From Gemmatimonadota bacterium (GTDB lineage Bacteria > Gemmatimonadota > Gemmatimonadetes > Palauibacterales > Palauibacteraceae), in NCBI GenBank assembly GCA_039588215.1, contig JBDHAD010000034.1, positions 1,230 to 65,229 on the forward strand: DNA of 64,000 nucleotides, in the 5' to 3' direction. The translations under genes were made by a program, and so were the position numbers. Positions 2,840 through 26,401 of this stretch are shown in pieces. A model generated the notes under the pieces. It did not search any database, was not told the DNA's origin, and saw nothing but the letters and a program-made list of their open reading frames with translations. Positions within the stretch are counted from its first letter, which is position 1; each line of letters begins with the position of its first letter.

Positions 2840-3117
2840 ATGCACGAAAGCCCGCATGGTTGCGGGCTTTCTCGTAATCGGGGCGGCGAGATGGCCTGCG
2901 ATCGCTCCGCGATCCGGCGATCTCCCGCCATGTACATCCAGGTCACACGGTGCAGCATATCAGGGCGGCGAGATTCAAACTCGCGACCTCCTGAACCCCA
3001 TTCAACCGGCGCAGCACGCATACACGTCGATACACTTCAGCACACACCGATTGGGCCGTTTTGACCTCCGTACACTTCCGTACAAACCTGCACACTCTGT
3101 GACAGCTAGCGTGACAG
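2840..3117 (-). repeat. Junction repeat J1: hairpin, a ~70-bp minihelix module, tRNA-Pro(GGG) 3'-half copy (2 substitutions), and an arm of 10-bp iterons ending in GTGACAG
   Basis: Aligns by eye with the repeats at 5018, 15014, 17961, 19234 and 23106, and with the tRNA-Pro 3' half at 26328. The GGGGCGGCGAGAT segment occurs twice (2880 and 2963). Confidence 0.85.
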
Positions 3118-3339
3118 TTCGATAGCTCTCGCTTCCCTGCTAGAGAGCCAAGCTCCAGGTTGCGTCACTCCCCCTGGCATACCGATACTACGGCCGGTGG
3201 CTCCTGAATCGCCGGGCGTTCTCTTCACGTAGCGTCCACGCTTCGGGGGTACCTCTCGAAGGAAAACCCCGTGGAGGTTGTCCTTCTCATCTCATCTGCT
3301 CGCATCTCGCGGTTGCAGATCATCATCAGGAGCGACGAC

Positions 3340-3951
3340 ATGACTGAATGGTGGTGGAAGGCCGATTACTACGAGACGTGCAACTGCGCCTACGGGTGCC
3401 CATGCAACCTGAGCTCGTTGCCCAGCGACGGCACCTGCAAGGCGATCGATGCGTGGCACATCCGCGAGGGCATGGCAGGCGATGTCCGCCTCGACGGCTT
3501 GAGCATCGCGCTCCTGTGTCACTGGCCCAATCCCATTCACGAGGGCAACGGCTCTATCGTCGTGTACATCGACGAACGCGCCGACGAGGCGCAGCGCGAG
3601 GCGCTCGCAGCCATCTGTGCGGGGGATGCCGGACCGGGGGGGCCATTCGAGATCTTCGCTGGCACGTGCACGGAGCCACCGAGGGTCGTCTACGGCCCCA
3701 TTACGCTCGAGCGCAATGGCAAGAGCGCGACCATGCGTTGTGGAGACCTGGGGCGAGCCGATCTCGGTCCGGTTATCTCGGCGATGGATGGCTCCGAGGC
3801 GGACATCCGCATGGTAATGCCCGGAGGGTTCATCTGGAGTGACGGCCATATGGTCAACACGGATGTGTGCGAGGTCGATACCGGCGACTTCAGCTTCCGA
3901 TTCGCCGACTCGAGTGCCTTTCTCTCCGAGGTCGAGTACAACCTTTCCTGA
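3340..3951 (+). CDS. DUF1326-family protein
   Basis: N-terminus MTEWWWKADYYETCNCAYGCPCN is typical of DUF1326. It is followed 4 nt later by a DUF2182-like partner, which is the usual pairing. Confidence 0.7.
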   Translation: MTEWWWKADYYETCNCAYGCPCNLSSLPSDGTCKAIDAWHIREGMAGDVRLDGLSIALLCHWPNPIHEGNGSIVVYIDERADEAQREALAAICAGDAGPGGPFEIFAGTCTEPPRVVYGPITLERNGKSATMRCGDLGRADLGPVISAMDGSEADIRMVMPGGFIWSDGHMVNTDVCEVDTGDFSFRFADSSAFLSEVEYNLS

Positions 3952-3955
3952 ACCC

Positions 3956-4750
3956 GTGGCACCGCTCCCGATCGAAGCCGTCCTGAGGCGCGATCGCGCG
4001 ATCATCCTGGCCGGTCTGGTCCTCATCTCGGTCTGGGCCTGGGCCTACACCGTGAACCAGGCCGCACGGATGGGCGACGGGGGGCTGACCACCGCTGCGG
4101 GTGCATCCATGGCGATGCCTGCCATGCAGGCGTGGACGGTGGGCGAAGCCCTGCTGGTCTTCGTCATGTGGGTCGTAATGATGGTGGCGATGATGGTCCC
4201 GTCCGCAACGCCCATGTTGCTGCTGTTCGCGACCACCAACCGAAAGCGGCGCCGGGAGGATAGGCCGTTCGTTCCAACCGGGCTCTTCCTGATCGGCTAC
4301 CTCGCCATCTGGGGTGGATTCAGCGCCCTGGCGACCACAGGACAGTGGGCTTTGCATTCGGCGGCTCTGCTGTCACCGATGATGGTGAGCACCAGCCCGC
4401 TCCTCGGCGGCAGCTTGCTGGTCGCGGCCGGAGTGTTTCAATGGACCCCGCTGAAGCACAGCTGCCTGCACCATTGCCGCTCGCCCATCAGTTTTCTGAC
4501 CACGCACTGGCGCGAGGGGCGGGCGGGGGCCTTCTACTTGGGTCTGCACCACGGCGCCTACTGCCTCACCTGTTGTTGGTTGCTGATGTGCCTGCTCTTT
4601 GTGACCGGGATCATGAACCTGCTGTGGGTCGCCATCATCGCCGGCCTCGTGCTCGCCGAGAAGGTCCTGCCCGCCGTCGTGGCGCCGTGGTTGGCACGAT
4701 GCGCCGGTGTGCTTCTCGTGGGGTGGGGCGCCTGGTTGATCCTGGTATAG
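3956..4750 (+). CDS. DUF2182-family integral membrane protein (putative metal-binding)
   Basis: GTG start just after the DUF1326 stop. Several hydrophobic helices. Contains HHCRSP and HHGAYCLTCCW motifs. Confidence 0.65.
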   Translation: MAPLPIEAVLRRDRAIILAGLVLISVWAWAYTVNQAARMGDGGLTTAAGASMAMPAMQAWTVGEALLVFVMWVVMMVAMMVPSATPMLLLFATTNRKRRREDRPFVPTGLFLIGYLAIWGGFSALATTGQWALHSAALLSPMMVSTSPLLGGSLLVAAGVFQWTPLKHSCLHHCRSPISFLTTHWREGRAGAFYLGLHHGAYCLTCCWLLMCLLFVTGIMNLLWVAIIAGLVLAEKVLPAVVAPWLARCAGVLLVGWGAWLILV

Positions 4751-5017
4751 GGACTCGCTGGCGAACCGCTGTTTCCGAATCAGGTGTCTCGCGCGCGCGC
4801 GAACGTCCAGCGGGAGGTGTTACGAGCCATCGCTGCCAGCCGCTCCCCCGTCTTCCCACACCGAGAGATCAGACGTGGGTGCACCTGACGGCGGCCTGCA
4901 TATCTTCAGTTGCCAGGTATGGGCGCGGCGATGGGTGGTTGAAGCGTTTGATATGGTGAAGCGGCTCGTCTCTGTGACAACGTAGTCAAGTTGGGAGGCT
5001 TACCGAGAGGTCCTTGC

Positions 5018-5215
5018 ATGCACGAAAGCCCACGATCCACGTGGGCTTTCGGCGCAATCGGGGCGGCGAGATTCGAACTCGCGACCTCCTGAACCCCATT
5101 CAAGCGGCGCAGCACCCGTACACTTCGATACACTTCCGTACACACCGATTTCGGCGTTTTGACTTCCGTACACTTCCGTACACTCCTGCTCACTCTGTGA
5201 CAGCTAGCGTGACAG
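5018..5215 (-). repeat. Junction repeat J2 (canonical form): hairpin, 46-nt tRNA-Pro 3' half, and 5 copies of the CGTACACTTC-type iteron ending in GTGACAG-N5-GTGACAG
   Basis: Positions 5057-5102 are identical to 26326-26371, which is the tRNA-Pro 3' part plus flank. The hairpin stem has compensatory changes relative to other copies. Confidence 0.9.
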
Positions 5216-5627
5216 TTTGCTGGCGGTGTGATCGGCTGGCACCGGCTGACGGGTCCGGTGCGTCCAGCACACGCTCACGCGGCGTGCGCTGAGCACTCTC
5301 CCCAGAGGTGGCCGTACTTGCACTGGGTGCGTCTGCGGCACGATCCCGACACGGTAGAACTCTAGGTTCCCGCCGTTCTGCTTTCCCTGCGACGCCTTGC
5401 AAAGGTCGTGTCCGGCACGTTATGGATATTCCGGGCGGCAACTCCCGATCACGCCAGGATTTTCCCGCAACGCATCCTCAGGCGACGAGCGGCACAACGC
5501 CGTTTGTCGATCCTTTTCTGAATAGGCCGACCACTTGATAGGCAAGTATTCGGCTTCGCTCGGTGGGTGGGCCACCGCTCGAGGGGTGGACGGGAAGACG
5601 AAAGCCCAAGCAGCCCTGGAGGTCCAA

Positions 5628-7397
5628 ATGCGCTGCGCTCGGTTACTCCTCTGTCTCTTGCTGGCGTGTCTCATCGTTCCCGAGGTGGCCGCCCCTCAGG
5701 AACAAGATCAGCCGACCAAGTTCCAGATCTCGCTTCCAGAGGGAGCCGAGATCTGGAACAACTGGTACTACGCGGAGCTGGCGATCTCACCAGACGGGCG
5801 GTACGTGGTCTTCACCAACCGGGGCGAGAGCCCGCCACGCCTATACCGGAGAGACTTGCGTGAAGGTACGACGATCGCGATCCCCGGTATCGATCGTGGA
5901 GCGGTGCCGTTCTTTTCTGCAGACGGGCGATGGGTCGCGTTCGTAGCGCAGGGCAAACTGAAGAAGATCCCGGTCGAAGGCGGGGAGCCTGTCGACCTCG
6001 CGGACATAGAGAACTTCTTTGGCGGCGCCTGGGGTCCGGACGGAACGATCGTGTATGCCCCGGAGCCCGGGGGTGGACTGTACAAAGTCGCGGCCACGGG
6101 AGGGCCGCGGGAGCGGCTGACCGAGCGGGGGTGGTATCCGTCCTTTCTCCCCGATGGCCGCTCCGTGCTCTTCAACACCTGGGAGCTGGGGCCCACCAGC
6201 ACGATTGCCGTCCTGGACCTACACACCGGACAGACCGATCACTTACCGATCGCCGGGCGCGCCCCACAGTACGTCGCCTCTGGTCACCTTCTCTTCGGGC
6301 GGGATCTCGATCTCTACGCTGCCGCCTTCGACCCCGCGACTCGAGAGGTCGGCGAAGCACGGCCCATCGTTCGCGGGGTCGGCACCGGCATCGAGCCACC
6401 GCGGCAATTCGCGGTTTCCGAGAACGGAACCCTCGTATACATCGCCGGCGGTAAGGCGCTCCCATCTGAGCCCGTGCGCGTGGATCTCGAAGGCTCGGTT
6501 ACGGCACTTGGGATGCCACCCGCGTACTATGTAATTCCCCGTCAATCACCCGACGGGTCTATGATCGCCCTCGACATTCGAGCCCCCGACAAACGTGACG
6601 TGTGGGTCGTGGACGCCACGGGTGGGGAGCCTCGCGCACTCACATCGGATGGCGATAGTTGGCTCGTCGACTGGCTGTCGGACGATGAAGTTCTCATCTG
6701 GAGGGGGCCGAACCCCGGCACCATCCAGGCCCTTCCAGTCACACCCGGGGGTACGCCGCGCGATCTTGTTTCTGCGGCGGAAAAGGGTCTCGACTGGATT
6801 ACCGTTGACGGCATAACCCCTGACGGGGGCAGCCTCGTGGGTCGCGTTCCTTCACAGGGTGAGGGCAATAGCGACATCGCCCTGTTTGACCTCGGGGGCG
6901 ACGGAGAGATCGAGGTGCTCGCCGGCTCGACCGAGCCTGGGGTCGAGCACCACACGGGGACTGTCTCGCCAGACGGGCGGTGGCTCGCCTACGTGACCGA
7001 CAAGTCCGGCAACCGCGAGGTTCACGTCATGCCTTTCTCGGGGCCCAGCCCCGATCGCATGGTGTCCGGTGCGGCGAGCGGGTGGGCCACCTACCCGCAC
7101 TGGTCCCCCGATAGTCGTGGCATCTACTACCGTCAGGGCGGCCGGATGTGGTTCGCCGAGATCGGGACCAACCCTGAGGAGCCCATTACCGAGCAGCGCT
7201 CACTCTTCGAGATCCCCGACGACATCTTCTCGGGAAGTGGCAACTACACCTTCTCCAACTTCGATCTGGCGCCGGACGGCCAGTCGTTCCTGATGCTCCG
7301 GGGTGTCGGTGAGTGGCAACCACCGAAGCACATCAGCGGCCTCACGAACTTGTTCGGCGCTATCGAGGCCGCATTCGTTGACGCAGCCCCGGACTGA
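5628..7397 (+). CDS. Secreted TolB-like beta-propeller (WD40-like) repeat protein
   Basis: Signal peptide MRCARLLLCLLLACLIV. Recurrent SPDGRxxxF, SADGRWVAF and PDG repeats, as in TolB-type propellers. Confidence 0.75.
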   Translation: MRCARLLLCLLLACLIVPEVAAPQEQDQPTKFQISLPEGAEIWNNWYYAELAISPDGRYVVFTNRGESPPRLYRRDLREGTTIAIPGIDRGAVPFFSADGRWVAFVAQGKLKKIPVEGGEPVDLADIENFFGGAWGPDGTIVYAPEPGGGLYKVAATGGPRERLTERGWYPSFLPDGRSVLFNTWELGPTSTIAVLDLHTGQTDHLPIAGRAPQYVASGHLLFGRDLDLYAAAFDPATREVGEARPIVRGVGTGIEPPRQFAVSENGTLVYIAGGKALPSEPVRVDLEGSVTALGMPPAYYVIPRQSPDGSMIALDIRAPDKRDVWVVDATGGEPRALTSDGDSWLVDWLSDDEVLIWRGPNPGTIQALPVTPGGTPRDLVSAAEKGLDWITVDGITPDGGSLVGRVPSQGEGNSDIALFDLGGDGEIEVLAGSTEPGVEHHTGTVSPDGRWLAYVTDKSGNREVHVMPFSGPSPDRMVSGAASGWATYPHWSPDSRGIYYRQGGRMWFAEIGTNPEEPITEQRSLFEIPDDIFSGSGNYTFSNFDLAPDGQSFLMLRGVGEWQPPKHISGLTNLFGAIEAAFVDAAPD

Positions 7398-7628
7398 GAG
7401 CTGCCGAGCAGCTGCGGACCCGGCATGGGGCCTTCAGCGCACGAGATGCTGCGTGGAGGAGCCCGTTACTATGGACCTGCCCTGTGGGCCCCCGGCCTGT
7501 CAGCCCACAGCCGTGGCGGGCTCGACGTCTCTCCATGCTCCCGTCTACACTGCGGAAAGGGAGACCCGAAACTCCGTTTTGCCCGCAGCCTACTGCCACG
7601 GCGTCCGACCGTGTGAAAGGAGCCCCCG

Positions 7629-8003
7629 ATGGATGACAGAGACGTCTCAGCGATTCATGGCATGATCGAACCGTGGACCCAGGCATGCCTGGACGGCGAC
7701 TGGGATGCACTCCTCGGCATGTGCAACGAGGATATCGTGTTCATGCCCCCCGGCGAGCCCTCCGTGAGCGGTGACGCGGTCCGCCCCTGGCTGGATGGGC
7801 TCTTGATCCGAAGCATGACGTGGAGCATCGATCAGATCGAGGTCCGCGGTGACCTGGCGTACCTGAAAGGTCCGGTCGAGGAGGTCCTCGAGATCGACGG
7901 ACAGGAAGAGCGCTTCAACGGGAAGTACAGCGATCTAATGCGAAGAGGGGCCGACGGCATGTGGCGCTTTTCGGTCATCATGTGGAACTCGGACGAGTCC
8001 TGA
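7629..8003 (+). CDS. SnoaL-like / DUF4440 (NTF2-fold) protein
   Basis: 124 aa. The pattern ...WTQACLDGDWDALLGMCNEDIVFMPPG... is typical of the NTF2-like fold. Confidence 0.6.
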   Translation: MDDRDVSAIHGMIEPWTQACLDGDWDALLGMCNEDIVFMPPGEPSVSGDAVRPWLDGLLIRSMTWSIDQIEVRGDLAYLKGPVEEVLEIDGQEERFNGKYSDLMRRGADGMWRFSVIMWNSDES

Positions 8004-8078
8004 AGTAGAGGGAGACGACGGACGAGCGCATCGACAGGCTAGATCGGTGGGTACGGTGGTGGGTCCGACCGAGGCTAC

Positions 8079-9122
8079 CTAGCTGTGCGTCGCAAGGACG
8101 TTGCTCACCCTGAGCTTGACGAGGCGCTGGAAAGGCGTCCGCCGTCCGATGCCGGCATGCTTTCGGGTGAGATTGTATTAGCGTAGCCAGGCCCGCAGCA
8201 TCTTCGTCCGTTCCCTCGAGTGGTGATAGGGCCGACCACAGGCCCACTCCTCCGCCGAGGTGCGGATGAAGCGCTCCACCTTGCCATTCGTTCGGGGCGT
8301 GTACGGCCGGGTAAACAGGTGACGGATCCCAAGCTCGCGCAGCGTCCGCCCGAAGAGCTTCGATCGATACCCCGGGCCATTGTCCGTCATGAGCTGTGCG
8401 ATCTTCACCCCCTGGCACTCGAAGAAGGCCACCACGCGAAGGAGGAACGCCGTCACGTCTTCCTTGCGCTCGCTCTCCAAGACCTCCCCATAGGCCACAC
8501 GGCTCGCGTCGTCGATCGCGGCGTGGTAAGACTCCCAGCCCACGCCCAGGCTTCGCTGACTTCGGTCGCCGTGGATCCGGTGTCCAATGCGCTCGATCCG
8601 CGCCAGCTTCTTAATATCCATGTGCACCAGCGAGCCGGGCCGGGACCGCTCGTATCGGACCACCGGAACCGGAGGGGCCAGTCTCGAGAGCCGGTTCAGC
8701 CCCAACCGCCTCACCTCCACCGTCACCGTTGAGACCGGCATCTTGAGGTGATCGGCGATCCGGGGGCTGCTCCACCGCTTCCGCCTGAGCCGCTCGATCT
8801 GCCGACGACGCGCTCGCGGGATCCGTCTCGGGTGTCGGTGTGGCCTCGAGCTCCGGTCCTCCAGCCCCACCTCTCCCTCCTCCCGGTAGCGCTTGAGCCA
8901 TTTGAACGCCGTCCGCCGGCTCACGCCCATCTCCCGGGCCACCACCTCCGCACGCTCCCCTGTCTCAATCCTCCTGACCAGCAGGGCTCGCCCCGCAGGC
9001 GTCAGCTTCGCATTCTTGTGCACGTTCACCGGATCCCCCGACGAGTAGGTTGTGAAGGCTTCGAACACCTCCAGCTTACTCGTCGGCTTCCGGTGAACAA
9101 CCATCCTGTGACTTAGACCTAG
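8079..9122 (-). mobile_element. IS481-family insertion sequence (~1.04 kb)
   Basis: Contains the transposase ORF. CTAG is present at both proposed ends (8079-8082 and 9119-9122). Weak terminal inverted repeats match at 12 of 19 positions including CTAG. The boundaries are tentative. Confidence 0.55.
8178..9029 (-). CDS. IS481-family DDE transposase (HTH plus integrase core)
   Basis: The N-terminus VNVHKNAKLTPAGRALLVRR, then SRRTAFKWLKRYREEG, RSSRPHRHPRR, and the catalytic core (HMDIKKL, TDNG, RPYTPRTNGKVERF) are classic IS481/IS3-like features. Confidence 0.9.
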   Translation of the reverse strand: MNVHKNAKLTPAGRALLVRRIETGERAEVVAREMGVSRRTAFKWLKRYREEGEVGLEDRSSRPHRHPRRIPRARRRQIERLRRKRWSSPRIADHLKMPVSTVTVEVRRLGLNRLSRLAPPVPVVRYERSRPGSLVHMDIKKLARIERIGHRIHGDRSQRSLGVGWESYHAAIDDASRVAYGEVLESERKEDVTAFLLRVVAFFECQGVKIAQLMTDNGPGYRSKLFGRTLRELGIRHLFTRPYTPRTNGKVERFIRTSAEEWACGRPYHHSRERTKMLRAWLR

Positions 9123-9267
9123 CCGTCTCGTGCGTCCCGGACCGGGCCGGGGAGGGCGTGGAAGGCGACCACCGACCTGCTCGCCTATCTGGTCGAGACG
9201 TACGGCGACAAGGAGGAGGGAGAGCCGTGAGCCCCACCCTCCTCGCCGTCACATACGGCTGGCTTCG

Positions 9268-9732
9268 TCAGGATTCCGGCGAGACCATCCCGCCGATCCA
9301 CGACCACCTATCGCCAATCCGCATCAAGATGTCGAGCCGTCTCTCTCGGAGTTCCCTCCTCTCGCCGTTCGTGTCCTCTTCGATGTACAGGACCCAGTTG
9401 TGCATGAGCGCCACGCCGTCGATCACGCTGATCTTGAGCGGCTGGACCTCGAAGTGAATCACATCCGTGCGAGGCCAGTAGACCTCGGTCAGCCAGGTCT
9501 TTCCGTGCTCTTCGAGCCAGCCAGTCCGCGGCGCTGCGGTGCTAGTGAACCAAAAGACCGCCTTGGGATGCTCGTTGCACGTCGCCTCGATGGCCGACAT
9601 GTCCTCCGCGGCCCAAGCCTCCCAGCATCGGTTGTTGACGTCGATCACCTCCTGTTCCTCTGCGGTCCACTGTTGGGCAAACGCGGGTGTGGCGACGAAG
9701 AGAGCCAGCGAAGCGAGGGCGAGAGCACGCAT
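9268..9732 (-). CDS. Secreted SnoaL-like / NTF2-fold protein
   Basis: Signal peptide MRALALASLALFVATPAFA. Size and pattern match DUF4440-like proteins. Confidence 0.55.
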   Translation of the reverse strand: MRALALASLALFVATPAFAQQWTAEEQEVIDVNNRCWEAWAAEDMSAIEATCNEHPKAVFWFTSTAAPRTGWLEEHGKTWLTEVYWPRTDVIHFEVQPLKISVIDGVALMHNWVLYIEEDTNGERRELRERRLDILMRIGDRWSWIGGMVSPES

Positions 9733-10077
9733 GGGGTACCTCCTGTGGCTGTCGATGAGGCTTCGACGATGGGCGAGAGAGAGAGAGGGACGCGCAAAGC
9801 TGGGAGGGGGCGTCGTGAGCCACGCGAACCCTGACCATCCTCGACGCGATGGCCGACCGTGTCACCGGCGGGAAGGGTTTACCGAGCACCCAGCCGTCTC
9901 GTGCGTCCCAGACGCAGCTGAGACCCCCCAATGGGACTCCTACCTGATTACTATTGTGAAGGCTTGTCAGTCATCGCGCCCCAACCCTCTGCCAAGCCTC
10001 TGCAGATGGTCGAGTGCGGTTCGATCAAACTTGTCAAATCCCCCTTCAGGAGTCCCATTCGTTCAAGCGTATGAAGC

Positions 10078-10545
10078 TCATTGACGGGAGCCGAGGGTCT
10101 CGAACCTATACAGAAGGGCCTTCCAGGTATCGTTCTCCCGTACCCACAACTCCGATAGCCGTACATCGTACGCGGTCGTATTGCCAGTGCTGTCAGTGAC
10201 CGTGTTCACCTGGGCACGTTCCAGGACGACGATGTCGGGGCCAAGCACGAGAGTGCGCGTTTCACCCGCCTCGGACGTTTGGGTGATGTTCGGCCAGTAG
10301 TCTTGCATCGTACCAGAACGGGTCATCTCAATTGAACGCCTGCCCACCGCAGAGGAGGTAAACCAATCGGCAAAGTAGCTGAAGTACTCAGGATTCTCGT
10401 TATCGAAGGCGCTCTGCATCTCTGCGCTCAACTGCACAACGCTCTCTCCGATGGTCGCCCTTTGCTCCTCAGTCAATTCGCTCGCTGCGGGCTGACAGGC
10501 AGCCAGCACAGCCGAAGCCAAGGCTACGAGAATGTGGCGTCTCAT
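10078..10545 (-). CDS. SnoaL-like / DUF4440 lipoprotein
   Basis: Lipobox LAAC at the N-terminus, and the C-terminal WVRENDTWKAL motif typical of DUF4440. G+C is visibly lower than in the neighbours. Confidence 0.55.
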   Translation of the reverse strand: MRRHILVALASAVLAACQPAASELTEEQRATIGESVVQLSAEMQSAFDNENPEYFSYFADWFTSSAVGRRSIEMTRSGTMQDYWPNITQTSEAGETRTLVLGPDIVVLERAQVNTVTDSTGNTTAYDVRLSELWVRENDTWKALLYRFETLGSRQ

Positions 10546-10568
10546 GATGACCTCCTGAGAAGTTGGCG

Positions 10569-17908: not shown

Positions 17909-17960
17909 ACGAGGCTCGCCGGAGCAGGTGGTCGAGCGCTTCAGCGGGATACGACCGTAG

Positions 17961-18156: not shown

Positions 18157-18291
18157 TCCGTGATGATCTCCTCAGACCCACTGACCAGCTTTCGGTTCTC
18201 TGGGTCTAACTCACCCGTACCGGGGCCCTCGGTCGCCGGATCTCAAAGGAGCCTGCGTGGCAGCCGTCGGAGATCATCCCCCGAAAGGAAG

Positions 18292-19050
18292 TTATGGAGC
18301 CGCACCTGCAACCATTTCCAGTATTTCATCTGGAGAAAACCTGCTCAACTCAAGAATGTTCTTCCCGGAATCAGCCATCGCCCTGTTTACGAGATACATG
18401 CCAGTTCGATAACCGATGGCAAACCGGCCATCCGGGTGTTGACTCATCCAATGCCCGTAATTGGCGTCGATGGGCAGAGCCAGGATTTCCTTCAACCACA
18501 GGTCCCCATTCTCAGGATTGGCGAGCTTTTCAAACGAACCGTCCGCGTACTGCTCGGAGAAAACTACCGCCAAGCCTTCGTTGACTGCGGCGATGGGGAT
18601 ACCTCGCCCAAACTTGTTGCCCGTCATGGTCCAGCCACGATCCTGATGATGAAACTCGTGAAAAACCAAACGAGATAGATTCTTGTTGACCGCCGCAGAA
18701 ATGCCACCGGGGAATCCAGCAGAAATATCGATGATGACTAGCCCCGGTGCATCGGAGCGACCATTAAGATCCATTGACGTCCCCCAGTAGTCGAACCTTT
18801 CGTCAACAAACGTCACTATTACACTGATGTCTTCCGGTAAGGAGGGCACTAGTGCTCGTACCCTTCTTTCCGCCTCTGCTATGATATTGGTGATGAGACG
18901 TTGTTCCTCAGGCTTGACTCCATATCTTTCGCTGTCTTTAAACTGTATGTCCAGTCCCGTTTGATCCATCGACGTTTCCGTGTCAATGGCTAACACGGTA
19001 TGAGTGCTGGTTAGAACACAGGTCAAGATAATTGTTGATGCTCTGGACAT
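18292..19050 (-). CDS. DUF2268-like putative Zn-dependent protease, secreted
   Basis: HEFHH (HExxH) motif, with downstream EGLAVVFSE and GYRTGMYLVNRAM blocks reminiscent of DUF2268. G+C is clearly lower than in the flanks. Confidence 0.6.
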   Translation of the reverse strand: MSRASTIILTCVLTSTHTVLAIDTETSMDQTGLDIQFKDSERYGVKPEEQRLITNIIAEAERRVRALVPSLPEDISVIVTFVDERFDYWGTSMDLNGRSDAPGLVIIDISAGFPGGISAAVNKNLSRLVFHEFHHQDRGWTMTGNKFGRGIPIAAVNEGLAVVFSEQYADGSFEKLANPENGDLWLKEILALPIDANYGHWMSQHPDGRFAIGYRTGMYLVNRAMADSGKNILELSRFSPDEILEMVAGAAP

Positions 19051-19233
19051 GTTCCATGTACTCCGTGCCTGTCTTGCTTCAATTCGGGTGTACCAAGATA
19101 GCTCACATTTGAAGCATAAGCGTTCACGTCGCGGCTTTGTCTTGGCAATAGGGGTTCAACGGTGTGGTTCTTCTTATTGCGTATTCCCGTGGTGCGCACC
19201 GACCTTGCACGCAGAGATGTCCTTGGGCCCAGA

Positions 19234-19429
19234 ATGCACGAAAGCCCGCATGTTCGCGGGCTTTCGACCAATCGGGGCGGCGAGATTCGAACTCGCGACC
19301 TCCTGAACCCCATTCAAGCGGCGCAGCACCCGCACACTTCGATACAATTCAGTATACACCGATTGGACCGTTTTGACTTCCGTACACTTCAGTACAAACC
19401 TGCACACCCTGTGACAGCTAGCGTGACAG
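19234..19429 (-). repeat. Junction repeat J6: hairpin, tRNA-Pro 3' half, and iteron arm
   Basis: Core identical to J2, J4, J5 and the tRNA. The arm is collinear with J1 and J2 with scattered substitutions. Confidence 0.9.
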
Positions 19430-19560
19430 TTCGGGATCCCAGCAGCCTCTCCCGCTCCGCCACGAGCTACTCAGTGCCGAAGGCGACGGTGGGCCTTGAA
19501 GAGGGGGCGCCCCGCGTGGGGCCGCCCCGGCCGCGTAGCCCGACGGATCGAGTTGAGAGC

Positions 19561-20265
19561 CTACGGCGTGATTGTGATGTTCAACTCGAGGGGACCGCTC
19601 CAGAGGATGGTCTGGAGATCGCCGAGCGTATACAGATGCGCTTGGTCGGCCGTCACCGTTCTCGAGCCATCCCCGTTGATCGTTACCAGCGCCTGCTGGA
19701 ACACGAAGTTGTAGTAGTCACCACCATAGAAGAAAAAGTGGGCAGTAGGGCCGAAGGCTCCCGTCGGCTTGACCTTGTTCCCTCTGATCACGTACGAGGG
19801 AATGTTATCGAATGGGGTGCAGCTGCTCGCGCTGCCACAAATGTCGTCTTCCAACAAATCAGGAAGCTGGATGAACAACCAACCTGCGCCCGGTACGTCC
19901 TCTCCGTTGCAGGTAGGGATGGTTACGCCTGCCAGCGCGGGAATGACCGGGAGGTCTTGAAGAAACATGTGGCGAGCAGGACACTGCGGCTCCAGCCGGA
20001 AGCGGGCCGTCACGTGATCCCCATCGTAGAACCCCAAGCCATCGGAGGAGACGCGAGCCCCCGATACCGGATCGTTGAGCTCGGCCATCAAGGTGAGTGG
20101 AGGTGGGGGTGGGGGACCTCCCTTGCCGCCGCTTTTCCCAAACCGTGGCGTCAACTCGTCAGAGGCCGCTTGAGTCGGGGCATCGGCGCAAGCGAACCCC
20201 AGGAGTGCGACCGCAACGACCAACGCGGCCGACAAGAGAGAGCTTCGGGTCCTCGGCATACTCAC
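19561..20265 (-). CDS. Hypothetical lipoprotein (Pro/Gly-rich linker, Cys-containing domain)
   Basis: Strong SD (GGAGGTG) 4 nt upstream of the ATG. Lipobox LLGFAC. The competing 399-aa plus-strand ORF runs through repeat J6 and is rejected. Confidence 0.6.
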   Translation of the reverse strand: MSMPRTRSSLLSAALVVAVALLGFACADAPTQAASDELTPRFGKSGGKGGPPPPPPLTLMAELNDPVSGARVSSDGLGFYDGDHVTARFRLEPQCPARHMFLQDLPVIPALAGVTIPTCNGEDVPGAGWLFIQLPDLLEDDICGSASSCTPFDNIPSYVIRGNKVKPTGAFGPTAHFFFYGGDYYNFVFQQALVTINGDGSRTVTADQAHLYTLGDLQTILWSGPLELNITITP

Positions 20266-20440
20266 CTCCGTGTTAGAACCACGCGCCTAATCTCGGGTCT
20301 CGCTCGTTTTGCCCGGGATTGTAGCGCTTCTGGATGGGCGCCATGCCATTGGTGTACATAGGCCCCCGCGCCTAGATTTATAGCCGCACCGGGTAAACGC
20401 TCGGTTCCGTTTCAATTAATCCAGGTGGCCGCTCACGGGC

Positions 20441-23095
20441 GTGATATCCCTCAAGCTGTTTGGCCGTCCGTTCTTAGAGGACGACGACGGTCTCCTCACC
20501 GGACGAGCCGTTCAGCGCCATCGCCTGGCCCTCCTGGCCCTCCTTGCCCTGGCCCCGGGCCGGTCCCTGAGTCGGGAGAAGCTCGTGGGCTATCTGTGGC
20601 CTGAGCGCAGAACTCACCGTGCACGCAACCTGCTCAACGTGTCCGTGCACATGCTCCGCAAGACACTCGGTGCTGACGCGTTGCTCTCCGAGGGCGATGA
20701 TCTGCGGCTGAACATAGACTTGGTGCGGGTGGACGTGGCGGAGTTCGAGGACGCGCTGGCGTCTGGTGCGTCCGAGCGTGCGGTTTCGCGTTATATCGCC
20801 CCGTTCCTCGACGGCTTTTACCTGGACGGCTCGCCGGAGTTCGAGCGCTGGGTGGATGGCGAGCAGGCCCGCTTGGCCGGTCTGTACGAGCGGGCGTTGG
20901 AGTCGCTGGCGAAAGAGGTCGGGACTCGTGGAGATCACGAAGCAGCGGTGGGGTGGTGGCGCCGGCTTTCGGCACACAACCCGTACAACGGACGTGTGGC
21001 GTTGGGGCTCATGAGGTCGCTTGAGACGGCGGGCGACCGGGGAGGGGCCATCCGCCACGCCCAAGCCCACGAGGCCCTGCTTCGCGAGGAGCTGGGAGCC
21101 AAGCCCGATTCGCAGGTAGCGGCCCTAGCCGAGCGTCTGAAGAAGAAGCCTGCCGGTGTGCCTTCCGTTAGGGAGGCAGAACCAGGCGAGCATACCCCAG
21201 CGGAAGTCCCAATGAGTCAGCCCGGCTCTCTTGAGCTTTCACACGGCGGGCATCTGGAGCCCTCTTTCGAGGCTGAATCTCCACCCAAGGGGTTGTCCGA
21301 GGCGGGCCGGCGCTGGCTGTTCTGGACTGCTCTGGCTACGGCCGTCGTCGTGGTTGCGCTCGTGGGCATCGGCGAGCTCCGGAGCTCGGACGCTGAGCGA
21401 TTAGAAAAGCCGGCGCGAGTAGATGCAGCGCTCAATCCTCGCCGCGTCCTGGTCCTACCCCTGGAGAACGAGACGGGCGACACAGAGCTCGACGCACTTG
21501 GCCGCGTAATCGCCGACTGGACGATTCAGGGGATCGCGCGGACGGGGCTTGTGGAAGTGGTGAGCTTTCCCGGAACCTTGGAATTGACCGAAGCCCTGAT
21601 CGGCAGTTCCGCACTGACGCTCGACCCTGGGCAGCGAGTACAGTGGTTCGCTCGAAACGCGGCCGCGGGAACGGTCGTGTGGGGCTCGCTCTCCCAGGAG
21701 GCGGGACATCTCACGATCCAGGCCCAGGTGTCGGACGTGGCGAACAACAAGTTGCTCGCCGTGATCCCGCCCGTCACGGCTTCACGCGGGTCTCCGCTCG
21801 TGGGCGCGGAACTCATCCGGCAACGTGTGATGGGGTTCTTGGCGGTTCGATTTGGCTCTGCGCTGAGCGGATGGGCGGAGACCGCGCCCCTCGCTCCACC
21901 GCCCATGTACGACGCCTACCTGGAGTACGTGGCCGGATTGGAGACGTGGAATTGGGAGGAAATCTACGCTCATTATTCTCGCGCGGTGGCGATCGACAGC
22001 ACCTTCGCGCACGCCCTGATCGGCTTGCTCAAGGCAGGCATGGTGTTGTATTCGAGGCTAGATCGCGACTCGGCCACAGTCGCTTTGGATTCTGTCATCG
22101 CCCTCATCGAACGGCGTCGGCACCTCCTGTCGCCAACCGACCGCTACCAGGTGCGCGCGCTCGAGGCCTCTTTCTTCCAGCACGATCAGTTGGCTGCGTA
22201 CGATGCCGAGCGGAAGGCGGCAGCCTTGTCCCCCGATCGGTTGAATGCGCTGTTGGGCGTCGCGTTCTCGATCGGACACTATCGGGAGACGGTCGAGATC
22301 CTGCGCCGCCCCGATTTCCCGCTGATGGGACGCCCCTATCGGTGGAAGATTCTCACCGCCTCGCTCCACTTCCTCGGTGAACACGAAGAGGAGCTGAAGC
22401 AGGCCCGTCAGGGGAAGGAGGAACGTCCGGGACGCCTCTCCCTCTTCGAACAAGAAGCGACAGCACTGGCGGCGCTCGGGCGCCTTGACGAGCTGGACGA
22501 CGCGATCGAGGAGGGACTCCGGCTCGGAACCGGTCAGTCCGACATGCCATCGGGTGTATTCCTCAAGGTTACTGGCAACGAGCTGCTGTGGCACGGACAC
22601 GAGGAGGCAGGGCGTGAGGTCCTGCGTCGCGCCCTGCCGGCCCTTCGGGAGCTGGCGAGCCGTTCAAGCAATGGGGGCTCAGATCTTTTCACGTTAGCGG
22701 AAGCTCTGTTCTTCCTGAACGAATGGGACGAGGTCCGTGAACTGACCGAGCCGCGCGTTACCGCTGCGACTGCTCTTGAAAGGGCACAGTGGTGGTACCC
22801 TCTGCTCGGCATGGCTGCGGCAAAATCGGGAGCCCCGACGGCGGCACGAAAATATGAGGAACGTCTGAAGGAGCTCGATGAAAGCGCTGAGTTCTCGATC
22901 GGGTTTGGCGCATCCCGGCCGAGATTCGCACGTGCCCAAATAGCAGCGGCACTGGGCGAGTGTGAGCGTGCGACCCAGCTGCTTGGCGATGCGTTGAGGA
23001 AGGGACACGGCCACCAGTACATTCATCGGCGACCCGGGTTCATCGACTGTAAAGACCATCCAGCATTTCAGGAGATTGCGCAGCCGCATGGGTAG
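20441..23095 (+). CDS. SARP/BTAD-family transcriptional regulator with TM segment, LPL-N-type module and TPR-like C-terminus
   Basis: N-terminal wHTH plus BTAD pattern (RHRLALLALLAL, LVGYLWPE, LRLNIDLVRVDVAEFE, ALGLMRSLETAGDRGGAI). Later has VLVLPLENETGD. Confidence 0.75.
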   Translation: MISLKLFGRPFLEDDDGLLTGRAVQRHRLALLALLALAPGRSLSREKLVGYLWPERRTHRARNLLNVSVHMLRKTLGADALLSEGDDLRLNIDLVRVDVAEFEDALASGASERAVSRYIAPFLDGFYLDGSPEFERWVDGEQARLAGLYERALESLAKEVGTRGDHEAAVGWWRRLSAHNPYNGRVALGLMRSLETAGDRGGAIRHAQAHEALLREELGAKPDSQVAALAERLKKKPAGVPSVREAEPGEHTPAEVPMSQPGSLELSHGGHLEPSFEAESPPKGLSEAGRRWLFWTALATAVVVVALVGIGELRSSDAERLEKPARVDAALNPRRVLVLPLENETGDTELDALGRVIADWTIQGIARTGLVEVVSFPGTLELTEALIGSSALTLDPGQRVQWFARNAAAGTVVWGSLSQEAGHLTIQAQVSDVANNKLLAVIPPVTASRGSPLVGAELIRQRVMGFLAVRFGSALSGWAETAPLAPPPMYDAYLEYVAGLETWNWEEIYAHYSRAVAIDSTFAHALIGLLKAGMVLYSRLDRDSATVALDSVIALIERRRHLLSPTDRYQVRALEASFFQHDQLAAYDAERKAAALSPDRLNALLGVAFSIGHYRETVEILRRPDFPLMGRPYRWKILTASLHFLGEHEEELKQARQGKEERPGRLSLFEQEATALAALGRLDELDDAIEEGLRLGTGQSDMPSGVFLKVTGNELLWHGHEEAGREVLRRALPALRELASRSSNGGSDLFTLAEALFFLNEWDEVRELTEPRVTAATALERAQWWYPLLGMAAAKSGAPTAARKYEERLKELDESAEFSIGFGASRPRFARAQIAAALGECERATQLLGDALRKGHGHQYIHRRPGFIDCKDHPAFQEIAQPHG

Positions 23096-23105
23096 CGCCT
23101 CCCAG

Positions 23106-23473
23106 ATGCACGAAAGCCCGCATGGTTGCAGGCTTTCTGCCAATCGGGGCGGCGAGATTAGCTACGATCGCTACGCGATCCGCTGATCTCCCGCCACATC
23201 CATCCCGGTAAGACAGTGCAGCATATCGGGGCGGCGAGATTCGGGGAGCTTGCGACGAGCGAGGACCGCGTCAGCGGCCGCAGCTCTCACTCGCGACCTC
23301 CTGCCGTCGAGCCGCAGGCGAGACACTGAGCAGGCGCAGCCTGCGAAGCCACCCCATTCAAGCGGCGCAGCACCCGCACACTTCGATACACTTCCGTACA
23401 CACTGATTTCGCCGTTTTGACCTCAGTACACTTCCGTACAAACCTGCACACTCTGTGACAGTAGGCGTGACAA
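23106..23473 (-). repeat. Junction repeat J7 (largest form): hairpin, minihelix module, tRNA-Pro 3' half with two ~48-nt insertions, and iteron arm
   Basis: Combines the extra module seen in J1 (23160-23226) with the two insertions seen in J3 (23242-23289 and 23304-23351). Confidence 0.85.
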
Positions 23474-23579
23474 GTCATTTTGGCAGTCTGTCGGGCCTTT
23501 GCTTGCCGCCCCCCTTCCCCATGATCAGCTTCAAGAGCGTGGAGGCTCTGAGCTGACACCCTGACCCAGGCGGTCCGCG

Positions 23580-26264
23580 ATGTCCCCCGGGTTCGACAAG
23601 CTCAAAATGGCGCTGGCCGACCGCTACCAGATCGAGCGCAAGCTCGGCGAGGGCGGCATGGCGACCGTCTACCTGGCCCGCGACCTCAAGCACAACCGGA
23701 GCGTCGCGGTCAAGGTTCTGAGACCGGATCTGGCGGCGGTCGTCGGGGCCGAGCGATTCCTCACCGAGATCGAAACCACGGCGAACCTGCAGCACCCACA
23801 TATCCTGCCGCTGTTCGACTCCGGGGAGGCCAACGGCTTCCTCTTCTACGTCATGCCCTACGTCGAGGGCGAGACGCTGCGAGACCGGTTGGAGCGGGAA
23901 GGCCAGCTCTCAATCGATGAGACCCTCAGGATCGCGAGAGAGGTCGCGGACGGCTTGAGCTGTGCCCACGCCGCCGGGGTTGTACACCGTGACATTAAAC
24001 CCGCGAACATCCTGCTGTCCCGGGGTCATGCGACGATCGCCGACTTCGGGATCGCCACCGCACTTAGCGAGGCCGGTGGCGACCGGCTGACGCAGACCGG
24101 GGTCAGCCTCGGCACGCCGATCTACATGAGCCCCGAGCAGGCCTCCGGAGAGGGACGAGCGGACGTCCGCAGCGACATCTACGCCCTCGGGTGTGTCGTG
24201 TACGAGATGCTGGCAGGGGATCCTCCATTCACCGGATCGAACCCGCAGGCGATCCTGGCGCGGAAAACTGTGGAAGCCCCCCCGGCGATCCGCACGGTGC
24301 GCGAGACCGTGCCCGGATCCGTCGAACAGGCGATCCTGCGGGCAGTCGCCAGGGTACCCGCCGACCGGTTTCGGAGCGCAGAGGAGTTCGCCGAGGCCCT
24401 GACGGCGACCGACCGTGAGCGGCCGCCCGTGACGCGGACCCGGTCCCGGGTTGGGGCTCGGGCGCGCCGGATCCTAGCGTACTCCGTTCCGTCCATCGGC
24501 GCCATCTTCTTGCTCCTATGGGCGGTTCGTTCGGCGAGCGAGCGTGGGACGGGTGTCGATCTGTCCGACATGACGCTGCGGCCACTGACCAACTTCGTCG
24601 GGTGGGAGCATTCTCCCAGCTGGTCGCCCGATGGGAGCATGATCACGTACAGCCACATCGTGGGAGGAGACGCAGACATCGCCACGCTTTCCGTCGGCGG
24701 TGGGGAGCCTCACATCCTGACGGGTCATAGTCCGGCCGATGAGTTCCTACCAAGGTGGTCTCCGGACGGGTCACGGATCGCTTACGTGTCGGATCGGGGG
24801 ACCGGCACGGACGTCTACCTGATCTCTCCGACCGGAGGGACGGAGCAGAAGCTAGTGGAGACCCACATCCCCTTCTTCGAGCGACTCAGCGCGTGGGCGG
24901 CCGTGCTGGGCACCAACGCCTGGTCGCCAGAAGGAGAGGAGCTGGCCTTTTCGAGGCTGCACGAATCGGGAGAGGTCGCGCTCTGGAAGGTGAACCTGGC
25001 GACGCGGCAGGAGACACGCCTCACGACCCCGCCGCCGGCCGTGGAGGACGGGTGGGGGTCCTGGTCGTGGGACGGAAGCTCGATCGTATTCGTTCGAAAC
25101 GAGACGGGATCTCGCACGCTCTGGCAGGTGCCGGCGGAGGGCGGCGAGGCCACACTGCTGTTCGGCGAGTTCGCGGTGCACCCGGCCTGGTTTCCCGATG
25201 GGCGGCGGATTGCTTTCGCGTCTGTGCGGAGTGGCGCGTCCAACCTGTGGGAGCTCGACGTCCGGGACGGCGCCCTGCGGCAGCTGACCCAAGGCGCCGG
25301 CATCGACTTGACTCCGGCGATCGCGAGTAATGGCGCGATCGCCTACCAGCAGTTCGGTCACGAGATCGAGCTCAGATGGGCGCGACTGGATGCCCCCGAC
25401 GAGGAGCATGAGCGCCTGACGTCATTTACCGGGGAGAACTTCGGGGCTCGAGTCTCACCCGACGGGTCCCGGGTCTTGTACTATTCCAACCGGTCCGGAA
25501 ACTACGACCTGTGGATCCTTGAGCGCGCCACGGGTCAGCACCGCCAGATCACGAACGATCCGGCGGCCGACCGACTCGCGGATTGGTCGCCGGATAGCGA
25601 CGAAATCGTGTTCATGTCGAACCGGGGAGGGGTGGTCCGGCTCTGGGTGGCCGAGACCGAGACTGGCGCGACGCGTCCGCTCACGAACCACGCCCTTCCC
25701 TGGGAGACCCACGAGGCGGAAGCGCAGGGGGGTCCCCGGTGGTCCCCGGACGGTCAGCTCGTCGGATATCTTGCGCCAGCGGACGGAGATGCCGCGATTT
25801 GGGTGGTCGCCCCAGACGGCGGAGCGCCACGGCCGACGGGGGTCCGGGGGGCCCTCAGTTTCGGCTGGTATCTGGACAGCGAGCGCGTCGTGTACACGAG
25901 GCGCGCTCTGGACGGCTCCGGGCTCGTGGAGCTGCGCGCCGCCCATCTCGGGTCCGGCGAGGACGTGCTGCTTCGGGCAGGGCCGTTGGCCGAAATGGCG
26001 ACCTCGCCGGATGGGAGTGCCGTCAGTTTCGTCCAGTCACCGAGCCACTTCACGATGGACCTCTTCGTTCTCCGGCTGACGCCGCCCGATCCCCGTGACG
26101 AACTTCCCCGGGGCGTGGGCGTCCCACAGCAGATCACCTTCGGAGGGGGCGCATGGCACGTCCACAACGGAGGCTGGGCCCCGGATGGCAGCGGAGTCGT
26201 CTACTCGCGGGACCGGGATTTCGGGGACGTGTTCGTCATCGAGCCGACCGCCGGAGACGGCTGA
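23580..26264 (+). CDS. Ser/Thr protein kinase fused to a TolB-like beta-propeller
   Basis: Kinase motifs GEGGMATVYLA, HRDIKPAN, DFG and YMSPEQ. Many SPDGS / WSPDG propeller repeats. Paralog of 15296-17908. Confidence 0.9.
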   Translation: MSPGFDKLKMALADRYQIERKLGEGGMATVYLARDLKHNRSVAVKVLRPDLAAVVGAERFLTEIETTANLQHPHILPLFDSGEANGFLFYVMPYVEGETLRDRLEREGQLSIDETLRIAREVADGLSCAHAAGVVHRDIKPANILLSRGHATIADFGIATALSEAGGDRLTQTGVSLGTPIYMSPEQASGEGRADVRSDIYALGCVVYEMLAGDPPFTGSNPQAILARKTVEAPPAIRTVRETVPGSVEQAILRAVARVPADRFRSAEEFAEALTATDRERPPVTRTRSRVGARARRILAYSVPSIGAIFLLLWAVRSASERGTGVDLSDMTLRPLTNFVGWEHSPSWSPDGSMITYSHIVGGDADIATLSVGGGEPHILTGHSPADEFLPRWSPDGSRIAYVSDRGTGTDVYLISPTGGTEQKLVETHIPFFERLSAWAAVLGTNAWSPEGEELAFSRLHESGEVALWKVNLATRQETRLTTPPPAVEDGWGSWSWDGSSIVFVRNETGSRTLWQVPAEGGEATLLFGEFAVHPAWFPDGRRIAFASVRSGASNLWELDVRDGALRQLTQGAGIDLTPAIASNGAIAYQQFGHEIELRWARLDAPDEEHERLTSFTGENFGARVSPDGSRVLYYSNRSGNYDLWILERATGQHRQITNDPAADRLADWSPDSDEIVFMSNRGGVVRLWVAETETGATRPLTNHALPWETHEAEAQGGPRWSPDGQLVGYLAPADGDAAIWVVAPDGGAPRPTGVRGALSFGWYLDSERVVYTRRALDGSGLVELRAAHLGSGEDVLLRAGPLAEMATSPDGSAVSFVQSPSHFTMDLFVLRLTPPDPRDELPRGVGVPQQITFGGGAWHVHNGGWAPDGSGVVYSRDRDFGDVFVIEPTAGDG

Positions 26265-26295
26265 GATCGGCTCCGGGTCATCCCATTGACGCAAG

Positions 26296-26320
26296 AAAGC
26301 CCGCATGGTTGCGGGCTTTC
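26296..26320. terminator. GC-rich hairpin between the kinase 3' end and the tRNA-Pro 3' end (putative bidirectional terminator)
   Basis: GAAAGCCCGCA-TGGT-TGCGGGCTTTC. The same hairpin opens most of the junction repeats (absent from J3). Confidence 0.6.
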
Positions 26321-26327
26321 GGCGCAA

Positions 26328-26401
26328 TCGGGGCGGCGAGATTCGAACTCGCGACCTCCTGAACCCCATTCAGGCGCGCTACCGGGCTGCGCCACGCCCC
26401 G
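26328..26401 (-). tRNA. tRNA-Pro (anticodon GGG)
   Basis: Manual cloverleaf, 74 nt: acceptor CGGGGCG/CGCCCCG, D stem GCGC/GCGC, anticodon stem CCTGA/TCAGG with loop AUGGGGU, T arm GCGAG-TTCGAAT-CTCGC. Confidence 0.9.

Follow-up and report, generated by a model that had tools for sequence, protein, structure and literature searches.

How could a row of small gene packets have come to stand head to tail beside a single tRNA gene? This question is raised by a 64,000-nucleotide stretch of DNA from a Gemmatimonadota bacterium (GenBank assembly GCA_039588215.1, contig JBDHAD010000034.1, positions 1,230 to 65,229), referred to here as the window, in which at least seven such packets, or cassettes, lie beside an intact tRNA-Pro(GGG) gene with a module of ~210 bp between neighbours. 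The module combines a hairpin, a copy of the tRNA 3' half (the core) and an arm of direct repeats. The reading favoured here, with a probability of roughly 0.55, is that small integrase-less elements resembling cis-mobilizable elements (CIMEs) accreted in tandem at the tRNA-Pro(GGG) anticodon loop through a recombinase that acts in trans.

The tRNA anchor and the ~210-bp module

The intact tRNA-Pro(GGG) was recognized by both ARAGORN and Rfam (63 bits for the Rfam tRNA match), and its 3' 47 nt (26326-26372) constitute the core that is repeated through the array. Exact copies of this block were found at 5056, 15051, 17997, 19270 and, within the tRNA itself, at 26326, and the copy at 2958 has three mismatches; shuffled sequences are expected to yield none. 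The identity of the block in four junctions (J2, J4, J5 and J6 in the list below), first noticed in a first-pass annotation made from the sequence, is therefore exact, and alignment showed that the variant copies reported at 2840, 11184 and 23106 are real as well. All seven junctions have a core copy in the same orientation, the whole set lying within 2.8-23.5 kb, to the 3' side of the intact tRNA. The G+C content of the array is 0.55-0.67, compared with 0.65-0.73 in most of the flanking core DNA, and the array-free flank of the tRNA holds an ArsR-methyltransferase gene followed by an AdoHcyase gene. As the kinase open reading frame (ORF) of the leftmost cassette is still open in translation at base 1, the array extends to the left of the window, as had been proposed.

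On the plus strand each module runs from an extended hairpin through the core to the arm, the core being the reverse complement of tRNA-Pro from the discriminator base to the anticodon loop. The core-to-arm joint, CCCCATTCAASCGGCGCAGCAC, is present seven times (2996, 5094, 11312, 15089, 18035, 19308 and 23352; none expected from shuffles) and has no copy in the other 37.6 kb of the window. The arm end, CTGTGACAG-N5-GTGACAG, also occurs seven times in the window, and the single orientation claimed for all copies holds throughout, with 7/7 joints and arm ends on the plus strand. The claim that the core recurs together with its hairpin stood for the core and held only in part for the hairpin, as the pattern GAAAGCCCGC-N6-GCGGGCTTTC was found six times, with a variant hairpin in J2 and none in J3. 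The hairpin folds at -24 to -27 kcal/mol on both strands (z ~ -6), and the copy directly downstream of the intact tRNA is a possible two-way terminator. In every junction the tRNA 5' half is replaced, as first described, by a conserved arm of 113-125 bp with eight phased GTACAC-like repeats. Its left part holds three GTACAC-type hexamers in 10-bp phase, its centre of ~20 nt contains TTGAC, and its right part holds five phased hexamers (GTACAC, GTACAC, GCACAC, TGACAG, TGACAG). The anchor and the junctions are as follows:

26327-26402, minus strand: intact tRNA-Pro(GGG), array anchor and attL-like end (ARAGORN, Rfam)
26288-26325, no strand assigned: extended hairpin directly downstream of the intact tRNA (pattern match, folding)
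2838-3119, plus strand: J1, with hairpin 2846-2871, a 17-nt partial core, a 65-nt unit to 2957, a core with 3 mismatches 2958-3004 and arm 3005-3117
5018-5217, plus strand: J2, with a variant hairpin ~5025-5051, exact core 5056-5102 and arm 5103-5215
11185-11435, plus strand: J3 (type B), without hairpin, the core split by ins1 (11204-11248) and ins2 (11264-11310), arm 11321-11433
15013-15192, plus strand: J4, with hairpin 15020-15045, exact core 15051-15097 and arm 15098-15190 with a 20-nt central deletion
17959-18158, plus strand: J5, with hairpin 17966-17991, exact core 17997-18043 and a divergent arm 18044-18156
19232-19431, plus strand: J6, with hairpin 19240-19265, exact core 19270-19316 and arm 19317-19429
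23104-23475, plus strand: J7 (type B), with hairpin 23112-23137, a 17-nt partial core, a 65-nt unit 23159-23224, the core split by ins1 (23244-23288) and ins2 (23304-23350), arm 23361-23473

J1 and J7 share the extra 17-nt partial core and 65-nt unit. In tRNA orientation, identity between junctions and tRNA starts at TGA-ATGGGGT-TCAGG, inside the 5' strand of the anticodon stem, and this stem is a perfect inverted repeat flanking the 7-nt loop. The anticodon-loop sublocation is said, going back to Williams in 2002, to be the usual core site of tyrosine integrases that target tRNA genes. Sublocation classes within tRNA genes are also used in PMC3146451.

No conserved RNA structure was apparent in the arm, as RNAalifold gave no compensatory pairs outside the tRNA part of the modules, and matches to the sigma-70 promoter and canonical terminator consensus in the modules did not exceed those in shuffled sequences. 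Rfam matched only true tRNAs and no chimeric tRNA in the arm. ARAGORN called a 92-nt tRNA-Thr(GGT) over J2 (5057-5148, minus strand) and made the same call in two module-bearing loci of other genomes (L002 517-608 and L004 403-494). This candidate was rejected as false, having no Rfam tRNA match and no covariation in the alignment; the call over core and arm arises from possible pairing between CACCGAT of the arm and the acceptor 3' strand, and annotation pipelines may repeat it.

Insertion at the tRNA locus and constraint on the arm

Homologues of the ArsR-methyltransferase led to the same tRNA-Pro locus in an 82%-identical relative (L022) and in three Candidatus Palauibacter-like genomes (L023, L039 and L040). 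In L022 and L023 the tRNA-Pro(GGG) adjoins the ArsR-methyltransferase and AdoHcyase genes without any array, and neither BLAST nor nhmmer found a module, hairpin or arm downstream of it. L039 and L040, which were compared by gene order only, with no module scan, are syntenic with L023, and downstream of tRNA-Pro the Palauibacter group has conserved amidohydrolase, peptidase S15 and hydantoinase genes. The relatives thus keep the locus without modules, so that the 26-kb array is inserted extra DNA, and as the hairpin is unmatched downstream of the tRNA in L022 and L023, the hairpin beside the live tRNA is element-derived. With identity ending in the anticodon stem-loop and the locus empty in relatives, the proposal that the repeats are tRNA-Pro 3' halves displaced by integration at the tRNA is borne out. 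The nearest ArsR-methyltransferase homologues (P0001 and P0003-P0005, 80-92% identity) are all on contigs of 1.4-3.3 kb, and more distant ones are on contigs of 38 kb to 3.8 Mb; repeats of ~200 bp probably break short-read assemblies at array-bearing loci of relatives.

When one genome per species was scanned, the joint turned up in five other Gemmatimonadota species known from metagenome-assembled genomes (MAGs; JAJCZV01, JBDHAC01, JBDHIO01, JBDHHV01 and JBGMQU01, loci L001-L008). The scan of metagenomes gave three true matches, all from one sample, 8 of its 13 matches being chance matches to the short arm-end pattern. Module copies in other genomes are again clustered and co-oriented, and across the five MAG species and the metagenome conservation of the module is 85-95%, and the cargo differs from case to case. 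A metagenome contig of 13.8 kb (L013) opens with an intact tRNA-Pro(GGG), which is followed by an array. The cargo of these other arrays includes Ser/Thr kinases, a TonB receptor, a sigma factor, ATP-grasp, BNR, tannase, SASA esterase, beta-lactamase-fold, multicopper oxidase, LPG synthase and response-regulator genes.

The joint behaves as a point of exchange. Four homologous units of arm, ~105-nt leader and kinase are available, two from the window (at J4 and J7) and two from other genomes (L004a and L003), and to the left of the arm they show four different structures that switch at the same nucleotides, namely an intact core, a core interrupted by two insertions, an intact core together with a 65-nt unit, and a core with a T-loop insertion. 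One arm family is thus joined to four core types at the same nucleotides, which indicates that the left and right sides assort independently. In L011 a solo arm retains only ATTCA of the core and is then followed by unrelated DNA. Furthermore, the four exact internal cores are 47/47 identical to the live tRNA and the corresponding arms differ by 8-35%, a pattern that fits the entry of already-diverged elements into one site, each donating a tRNA-compatible 3' half. Compensatory T-stem changes in the core of L008 show that it derives from a different tRNA-Pro allele, and this foreign core, to judge from its sequence, suggests a transfer from one lineage to another.

Arms from different species resemble one another as closely as the arms of the window do (95% between J4 and L004a, 94% between J7 and L004a, 66% between J4 and J5). 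In the homologous kinase units the arms are 93.5-94.6% identical and the leaders 76-78%, and the kinases are 73-75% identical at codon positions 1+2 and 43-52% at position 3, which is saturated. Preservation of the arm next to kinase third positions that are saturated means that the arm is under strong constraint, and this conservation is explained neither by a conserved RNA structure nor by a sigma-70 consensus. In the divergent arm of J5 three repeats are jointly changed from GTACAC to GATCTCA, and a joint change of this kind would be typical of protein-binding repeats that co-evolve with their protein.

Cassettes without recombinase genes

The cassettes of the window are bounded by modules on both sides, measure 1.1-6 kb and hold 1-6 genes in mixed orientation. 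The cargo identities given in the first-pass annotation hold in Pfam. The cargo does not share the orientation of the arm throughout, as the DUF2268 and lipoprotein genes are on the minus strand. From left to right the cassettes are:

1-2769, plus strand: C0, Ser/Thr kinase with TPR repeats (Pfam)
3120-5017, plus strand: C1, DUF1326 (~3340-3951) and DUF2182/PpoB2 (to 4750) (Pfam)
5218-11184, no single strand: C2, PD40 propeller 5535-7397 (plus) and SnoaL/DUF4440 7629-8003 (plus) (Pfam), IS481-family transposase 8178-9104 (minus), DUF4440-like ORFs 9268-9861 and 10078-10545 (both minus), ORF without assignment 10569-11006 (minus)
11436-15012, plus strand: C3, TPR protein 11443-13569 and erythromycin-esterase-like protein to 14950 (Pfam)
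15193-17958, plus strand: C4, Ser/Thr kinase with PD40 propeller 15296-17908 (Pfam)
18159-19231, minus strand: C5, single DUF2268 gene 18292-19050 (Pfam)
19432-23103, no single strand: C6, lipoprotein 19561-20286 (minus) and BTAD/Trans_reg_C (OmpR-type winged-helix) regulator 20441-23095 (plus)
23476-26287, plus strand: C7, nearest the tRNA, Ser/Thr kinase with PD40 propeller 23580-26264 (Pfam, homologues)

The ~105-nt leader of the C4 kinase is conserved with C7 and locus L004 (repeat D4). C5 lies in a low-G+C stretch of the array, where 2-kb windows read 0.55-0.60. A 399-aa plus-strand ORF following J6 was discarded as a gene after frame and G+C analysis, the real gene there being the minus-strand lipoprotein. 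The IS481-family transposase, with LZ_Tnp_IS481 and rve domains, is inserted within C2.

That transposase is the only recombination-type gene in the cassettes and the sole DNA-breaking enzyme in the array. Pfam searches of the main ORFs of all 64 kb of the window, of L001-L008 and of L013, which together include ~100 kb of array-bearing DNA, found no tyrosine or serine recombinase (Phage_integrase, Recombinase, Resolvase) or remnant of one in the tested ORFs, and the leftover unassigned ORFs gave no recombinase match even at E<=1. The description of the cassettes as integrase-less is therefore upheld for the tested ORFs of the window and of the related arrays. Nor did Pfam reveal a primase/helicase replication module in any window cassette.

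A phage contig in IMG/VR (uncultivated viral genome (UViG) 3300032257_000017, 65% G+C) was considered and set aside. It has three GTACACTTC-type repeats in 10-bp phase, a motif shared with the arm, just upstream of an HTH_17 gene (L029 1173-1207 / L030 9962-9998), with T5orf172 and a Mu-like portal nearby and without an integrase or tRNA. These repeats are probably a coincidence, ~3 chance matches to such a pattern being a rough estimate.

Proposed accretion, its rivals and known systems

Under the accretion reading, each element would have been a small circle in which 1-6 kb of cargo was combined with a P-arm of ~120 bp, a strong hairpin and a tRNA 3' half of its own, and such circles would have integrated successively into the anticodon-loop region of tRNA-Pro(GGG). 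Each integration would restore the tRNA with the copy carried by the element and displace the previous 3' half inwards, so that an internal junction would be a rebuilt attP-like site composed of the arm of one element and the core and hairpin of the next. As no element encodes a recombinase, the enzyme would have to come in trans, encoded either at another place in the genome or by a helper element. It would most likely be a tyrosine recombinase with an arm-binding domain, possibly assisted by an excision factor, and the eight phased GTACAC-like repeats of the arm are its predicted binding sites. Since both arms are present at every junction, recombination between any two junctions could in principle free a cassette circle, which could then re-enter at the tRNA.

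Several observations fit this reading poorly. The two type-B junctions, J3 and J7, and locus L007 share two core insertions of ~45 nt (ins1 and ins2), L008 carries ins1, and J3 and J7 are 94% identical over 248 nt, the identical insertions included. These insertions split the core at G^AAC positions (L007 1672-1774, L008 2229-2273) and occur only in such junctions among the data examined; as a working tRNA cannot have carried them, type-B junctions must have propagated as a unit and not by independent integrations. The arm centre, which separates the first three repeats from the last five, is also a recurrent site of breakpoints, as seen in the 20-nt deletion of J4 (at 15131/15132), a solo right half in L002 (3790-3901), an inverted right half-arm in L013 (10414-10483, 11978-12043), and L005 (1367-1430, 4483-4570), where a right half-arm, 3 kb and a left half-arm follow one another, an arrangement like that of a circle cut open within its arm. 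Solo right half-arms moreover stand 40-130 nt upstream of divergent csp, DUF2268 and STK-FGE (kinase + FGE-sulfatase) genes, a position in which the right half-arm might serve as promoter or operator and which suggests that the arm, or part of it, is also or instead a regulatory or promoter module. Solo arms or half-arms at loci other than the tRNA were found at L014 1746-1833 / L016 6182-6269 (a decayed half-arm), L032 9882-9964 / L033 7182-7264 and L011 3243-3366; L011 and L014 are syntenic, with the arm well kept in one and decayed in the other.

The cargo and the searches for a parent element likewise count against it. For the C7 kinase, the closest homologues (72-75% aa identity) lie in ordinary chromosomal contexts with no module nearby, three kinase homologues (P0122, P0123 and P0124) having stable contexts of this kind, and those of the C5 DUF2268 protein (81-89% aa) lie in ordinary contexts with at most a half-arm nearby. 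The DUF2268 gene (L032 10001-10759 and L034 794-1552, besides the window copy) has three different neighbourhoods in three genomes, and as homology between the contigs is limited to the gene and ~60 nt upstream, it behaves as a single-gene mobile unit. Comparison of all loci by blastn and blastp found no cassette common to the window and the other arrays, only kinase-family and module matches, and no presence/absence variant or shuffling of cassettes was seen between genomes. No cognate integrase or integrase-bearing parent element with the arm was found, the junction, arm-end, arm-start and core patterns had no match in IMG/VR viral contigs, BLAST of the module against plasmids and phages returned only tRNA-part matches, and the recombinase check itself ran on main ORFs, not on every six-frame stretch. 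The trans recombinase proposed in the first-pass annotation, and present mobility, thus found no counterpart in an integrase, a parent element or a rearranged cassette order.

An 82-nt mini-unit, made of the last 17 nt of the tRNA (acceptor/T-stem) and 65 nt and flanked by the same 17 nt again, is a further complication. It is present in J1 (2876-2957), J7 (23142-23224), L010 (2080-2283, in 2.5 tandem copies) and L013 (2145-2248, directly after the live tRNA), and other cores have T-loop insertions. Judged by their sequence, the 82-nt unit and the T-loop insertions suggest that events of a second class took place at the T-loop/3'-end sublocation, and the mini-unit looks like the scar of a second element family. 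The arm conservation, the eight phased repeats, the hot spot of breakpoints in the arm centre and this second repeat class all go beyond the first-pass annotation.

Either an enzyme in trans shuffles the cassettes or the array consists of unusually well-kept relics. In the latter case, integrase-bearing islands at tRNA-Pro would have lost their integrase and excisionase modules, leaving a static array with an arm co-opted as promoter or operator. Tandem islands with degenerate members are known, such as tycheposon islands with scattered partial tRNAs (bioRxiv 10.1101/2020.12.28.424599) and Dehalococcoides ssrA islands, some of which lack an integration module (PMC3146451). Decay is also visible here in a truncated kinase cassette in L001, in split or partly deleted cores and arms and in the IS481 insertion, and neither an integrase nor a cassette polymorphism was seen in the DNA examined. 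However, no integrase fragment was found in the tested ORFs of the 7+ window cassettes or of ~74 kb of related arrays, whereas comparable decayed islands show fragmented integrases (bioRxiv 10.1101/2020.12.28.424599). Every deletion would in addition need the same ~210-bp boundaries, conservation across species is far higher in the arm than in the kinase catalytic domain, and four internal cores still match the tRNA at every position. This history seems unlikely; if the array were only a fossil, it would still be a clear case of an att-site arm constrained beyond the kinase catalytic domain, which needs an explanation such as regulatory co-option.

The ~210-bp unit could also be mainly a portable regulatory or insulator module that places the cassettes in one regulon under a direct-repeat-binding regulator, a role for which the SARP/AfsR-like BTAD protein of C6 would be the candidate, together with Ser/Thr kinases. 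The array would then have grown by homologous or illegitimate recombination and without a dedicated integrase. The eight hexamers recur with a 10-12-bp phase, as do OmpR/SARP-type boxes, a tally of gene orientations places a co-directional gene after ~13 of 21 arms, kinases always follow an arm with a conserved leader, and the cargo includes a BTAD/Trans_reg_C regulator and many kinases; the solo right half-arms upstream of divergent genes agree with such a role. Yet the arm has neither a sigma-70-like consensus nor a conserved RNA structure, in about one third of cases a convergent gene has its 3' end towards the arm, and the exact abutment of full arms to the tRNA-Pro half at the anticodon loop, the location at tRNA-Pro only and the empty site in relatives would all be left unexplained. 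A regulatory arm is, moreover, compatible with accretion, since attP arms often overlap promoters, and as a full account in its own right we consider it quite unlikely. Even less can be said for an in-situ segmental duplication of an ancestral tRNA fragment, arm and kinase with later replacement of the contents, which is very improbable. Paralogous kinases in 3 of 8 cassettes, the near-identity of J3 and J7 with the same insertions, and the D4 repeat that links the C4 and C7 leaders would be expected of it, but the window arms are no more alike than arms from different species and give no sign of local amplification, the remaining cargo is unrelated, the cores are identical where the arms have diverged, and one arm family stands on different core types.

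Accretion by integration at the tRNA has parallels in several known systems. At tRNA-Pro, integration is known for pSAM2 in Streptomyces. Tandem islands of the Islander/TIGER type, which tyrosine integrases build at tRNA or tmRNA genes, resemble the array in having an intact tRNA at one end and co-oriented displaced 3' fragments at their borders, in the identity block from the anticodon loop to the 3' end, in elements that bring their own 3' half and terminator, and in a site that is empty in relatives, a parallel drawn in part from PMC4383910. They differ from it in that no integrase was found here in the tested island ORFs, the units of 1.1-6 kb often hold one gene, and a single ~120-bp arm is shared. 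CIMEs and accretion arrays, such as the ICE/CIME tandems of Streptococcus (ICE, integrative and conjugative element) and the Dehalococcoides ssrA islands (PMC3146451), likewise have att-like flanks, lack recombination and transfer genes and stand in tandem at one RNA gene. The integrase-less Dehalococcoides islands have been proposed to be cis-mobilizable by the recombinase of a neighbour or helper, with 16 islands carrying an integration module (PMC3146451). There, however, autonomous integrase-bearing relatives share the array, whereas none was seen here in the arrays examined from six genomes or metagenomes, and the Dehalococcoides enzyme is a serine recombinase acting at the tmRNA T-loop (PMC3146451), as opposed to the tRNA anticodon-loop joint of the present array. 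Prochlorococcus tycheposons (bioRxiv 10.1101/2020.12.28.424599) also bring cargo to tRNA genes, push older elements inwards and leave scattered partial tRNAs, but they encode a tyrosine or serine recombinase of their own as well as a replication module and leave fragmented integrases in remnants, neither of which was seen here, and they belong to another phylum and have another arm sequence. Compared with known tandem islands, the novelty of the array would lie in the lack of a recombinase in any unit seen, in units of one to few genes and in a shared module with an arm that is conserved beyond protein-coding sequence.

Taken one step further, the array could be an integron-like platform of Gemmatimonadota, anchored at a tRNA, in which one distant recombinase captures, excises and reshuffles circles of a few genes through the ~210-bp module, with the arm serving in regulation as well. 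We regard this as tentative and on balance doubtful. Integron arrays are similar in that few-gene units stand at one anchor, each with a conserved site-like sequence and without its own recombinase, and a single enzyme is postulated in trans. The array head here, however, is a tRNA with ArsR-methyltransferase and AdoHcyase genes, with no intI, attI, Pc or integrase. Its repeat, judged by anatomy with no attC model run, is a hairpin, tRNA half and direct-repeat arm and not an attC, the site resembles a double-stranded attP with arm repeats, and the cassettes may be multi-gene, with genes in either orientation. With homologues of two cargo genes in ordinary contexts as well, the integron analogy of the first-pass annotation was overstated. 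Integrase-less modules with short sites and a recombinase (XerCD) encoded elsewhere are also known as dif/pdif-type modules; the site here, a tRNA anticodon stem-loop with a long repeat arm, would by its sequence point to a heterobivalent integrase rather than XerCD. A dispersed family of miniature inverted-repeat transposable elements (MITEs), repetitive extragenic palindromes (REPs) or terminators, the alternative against which the first-pass annotation had set its proposal, is disfavoured by copies that are co-oriented, clustered and tRNA-linked and absent from 37.6 kb of core DNA, with only a few solo half-arms (L011, L014/L016, L032/L033).

If a trans recombinase does act on the array, it would represent a second, independently evolved form of modular gene capture, with a tRNA as dock and an arm-bearing att site as cassette tag, in a phylum that is poorly studied yet abundant in soil, sediment and marine environments. 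The ~210-bp module could then also serve genome engineering as a compact portable att site, and a platform of the integron-like kind could be the means by which Gemmatimonadota expand and exchange their sensor kinases and accessory enzymes.

Beyond the array, the window contains a cluster of six tRNA genes on the minus strand at 29384-30100 (Pro-CGG, Gly-GCC, Thr-CGT, Ala-CGC, Asp-GTC and Val-GAC). The tRNA-Ala(CGC) of this cluster is short at 69 nt (ARAGORN) and scores 33.9 bits in Rfam versus 63-72 for the other tRNAs of the window, and may be atypical or degenerate. Further along, at 31901-46508 on the plus strand, two consecutive respiratory-type operons hold molybdopterin oxidoreductase, 4Fe-4S, NrfD and ActD genes (alternative complex III-like) together with multihaem and c-type cytochrome genes; these operons are ordinary core metabolism and unrelated to the array.

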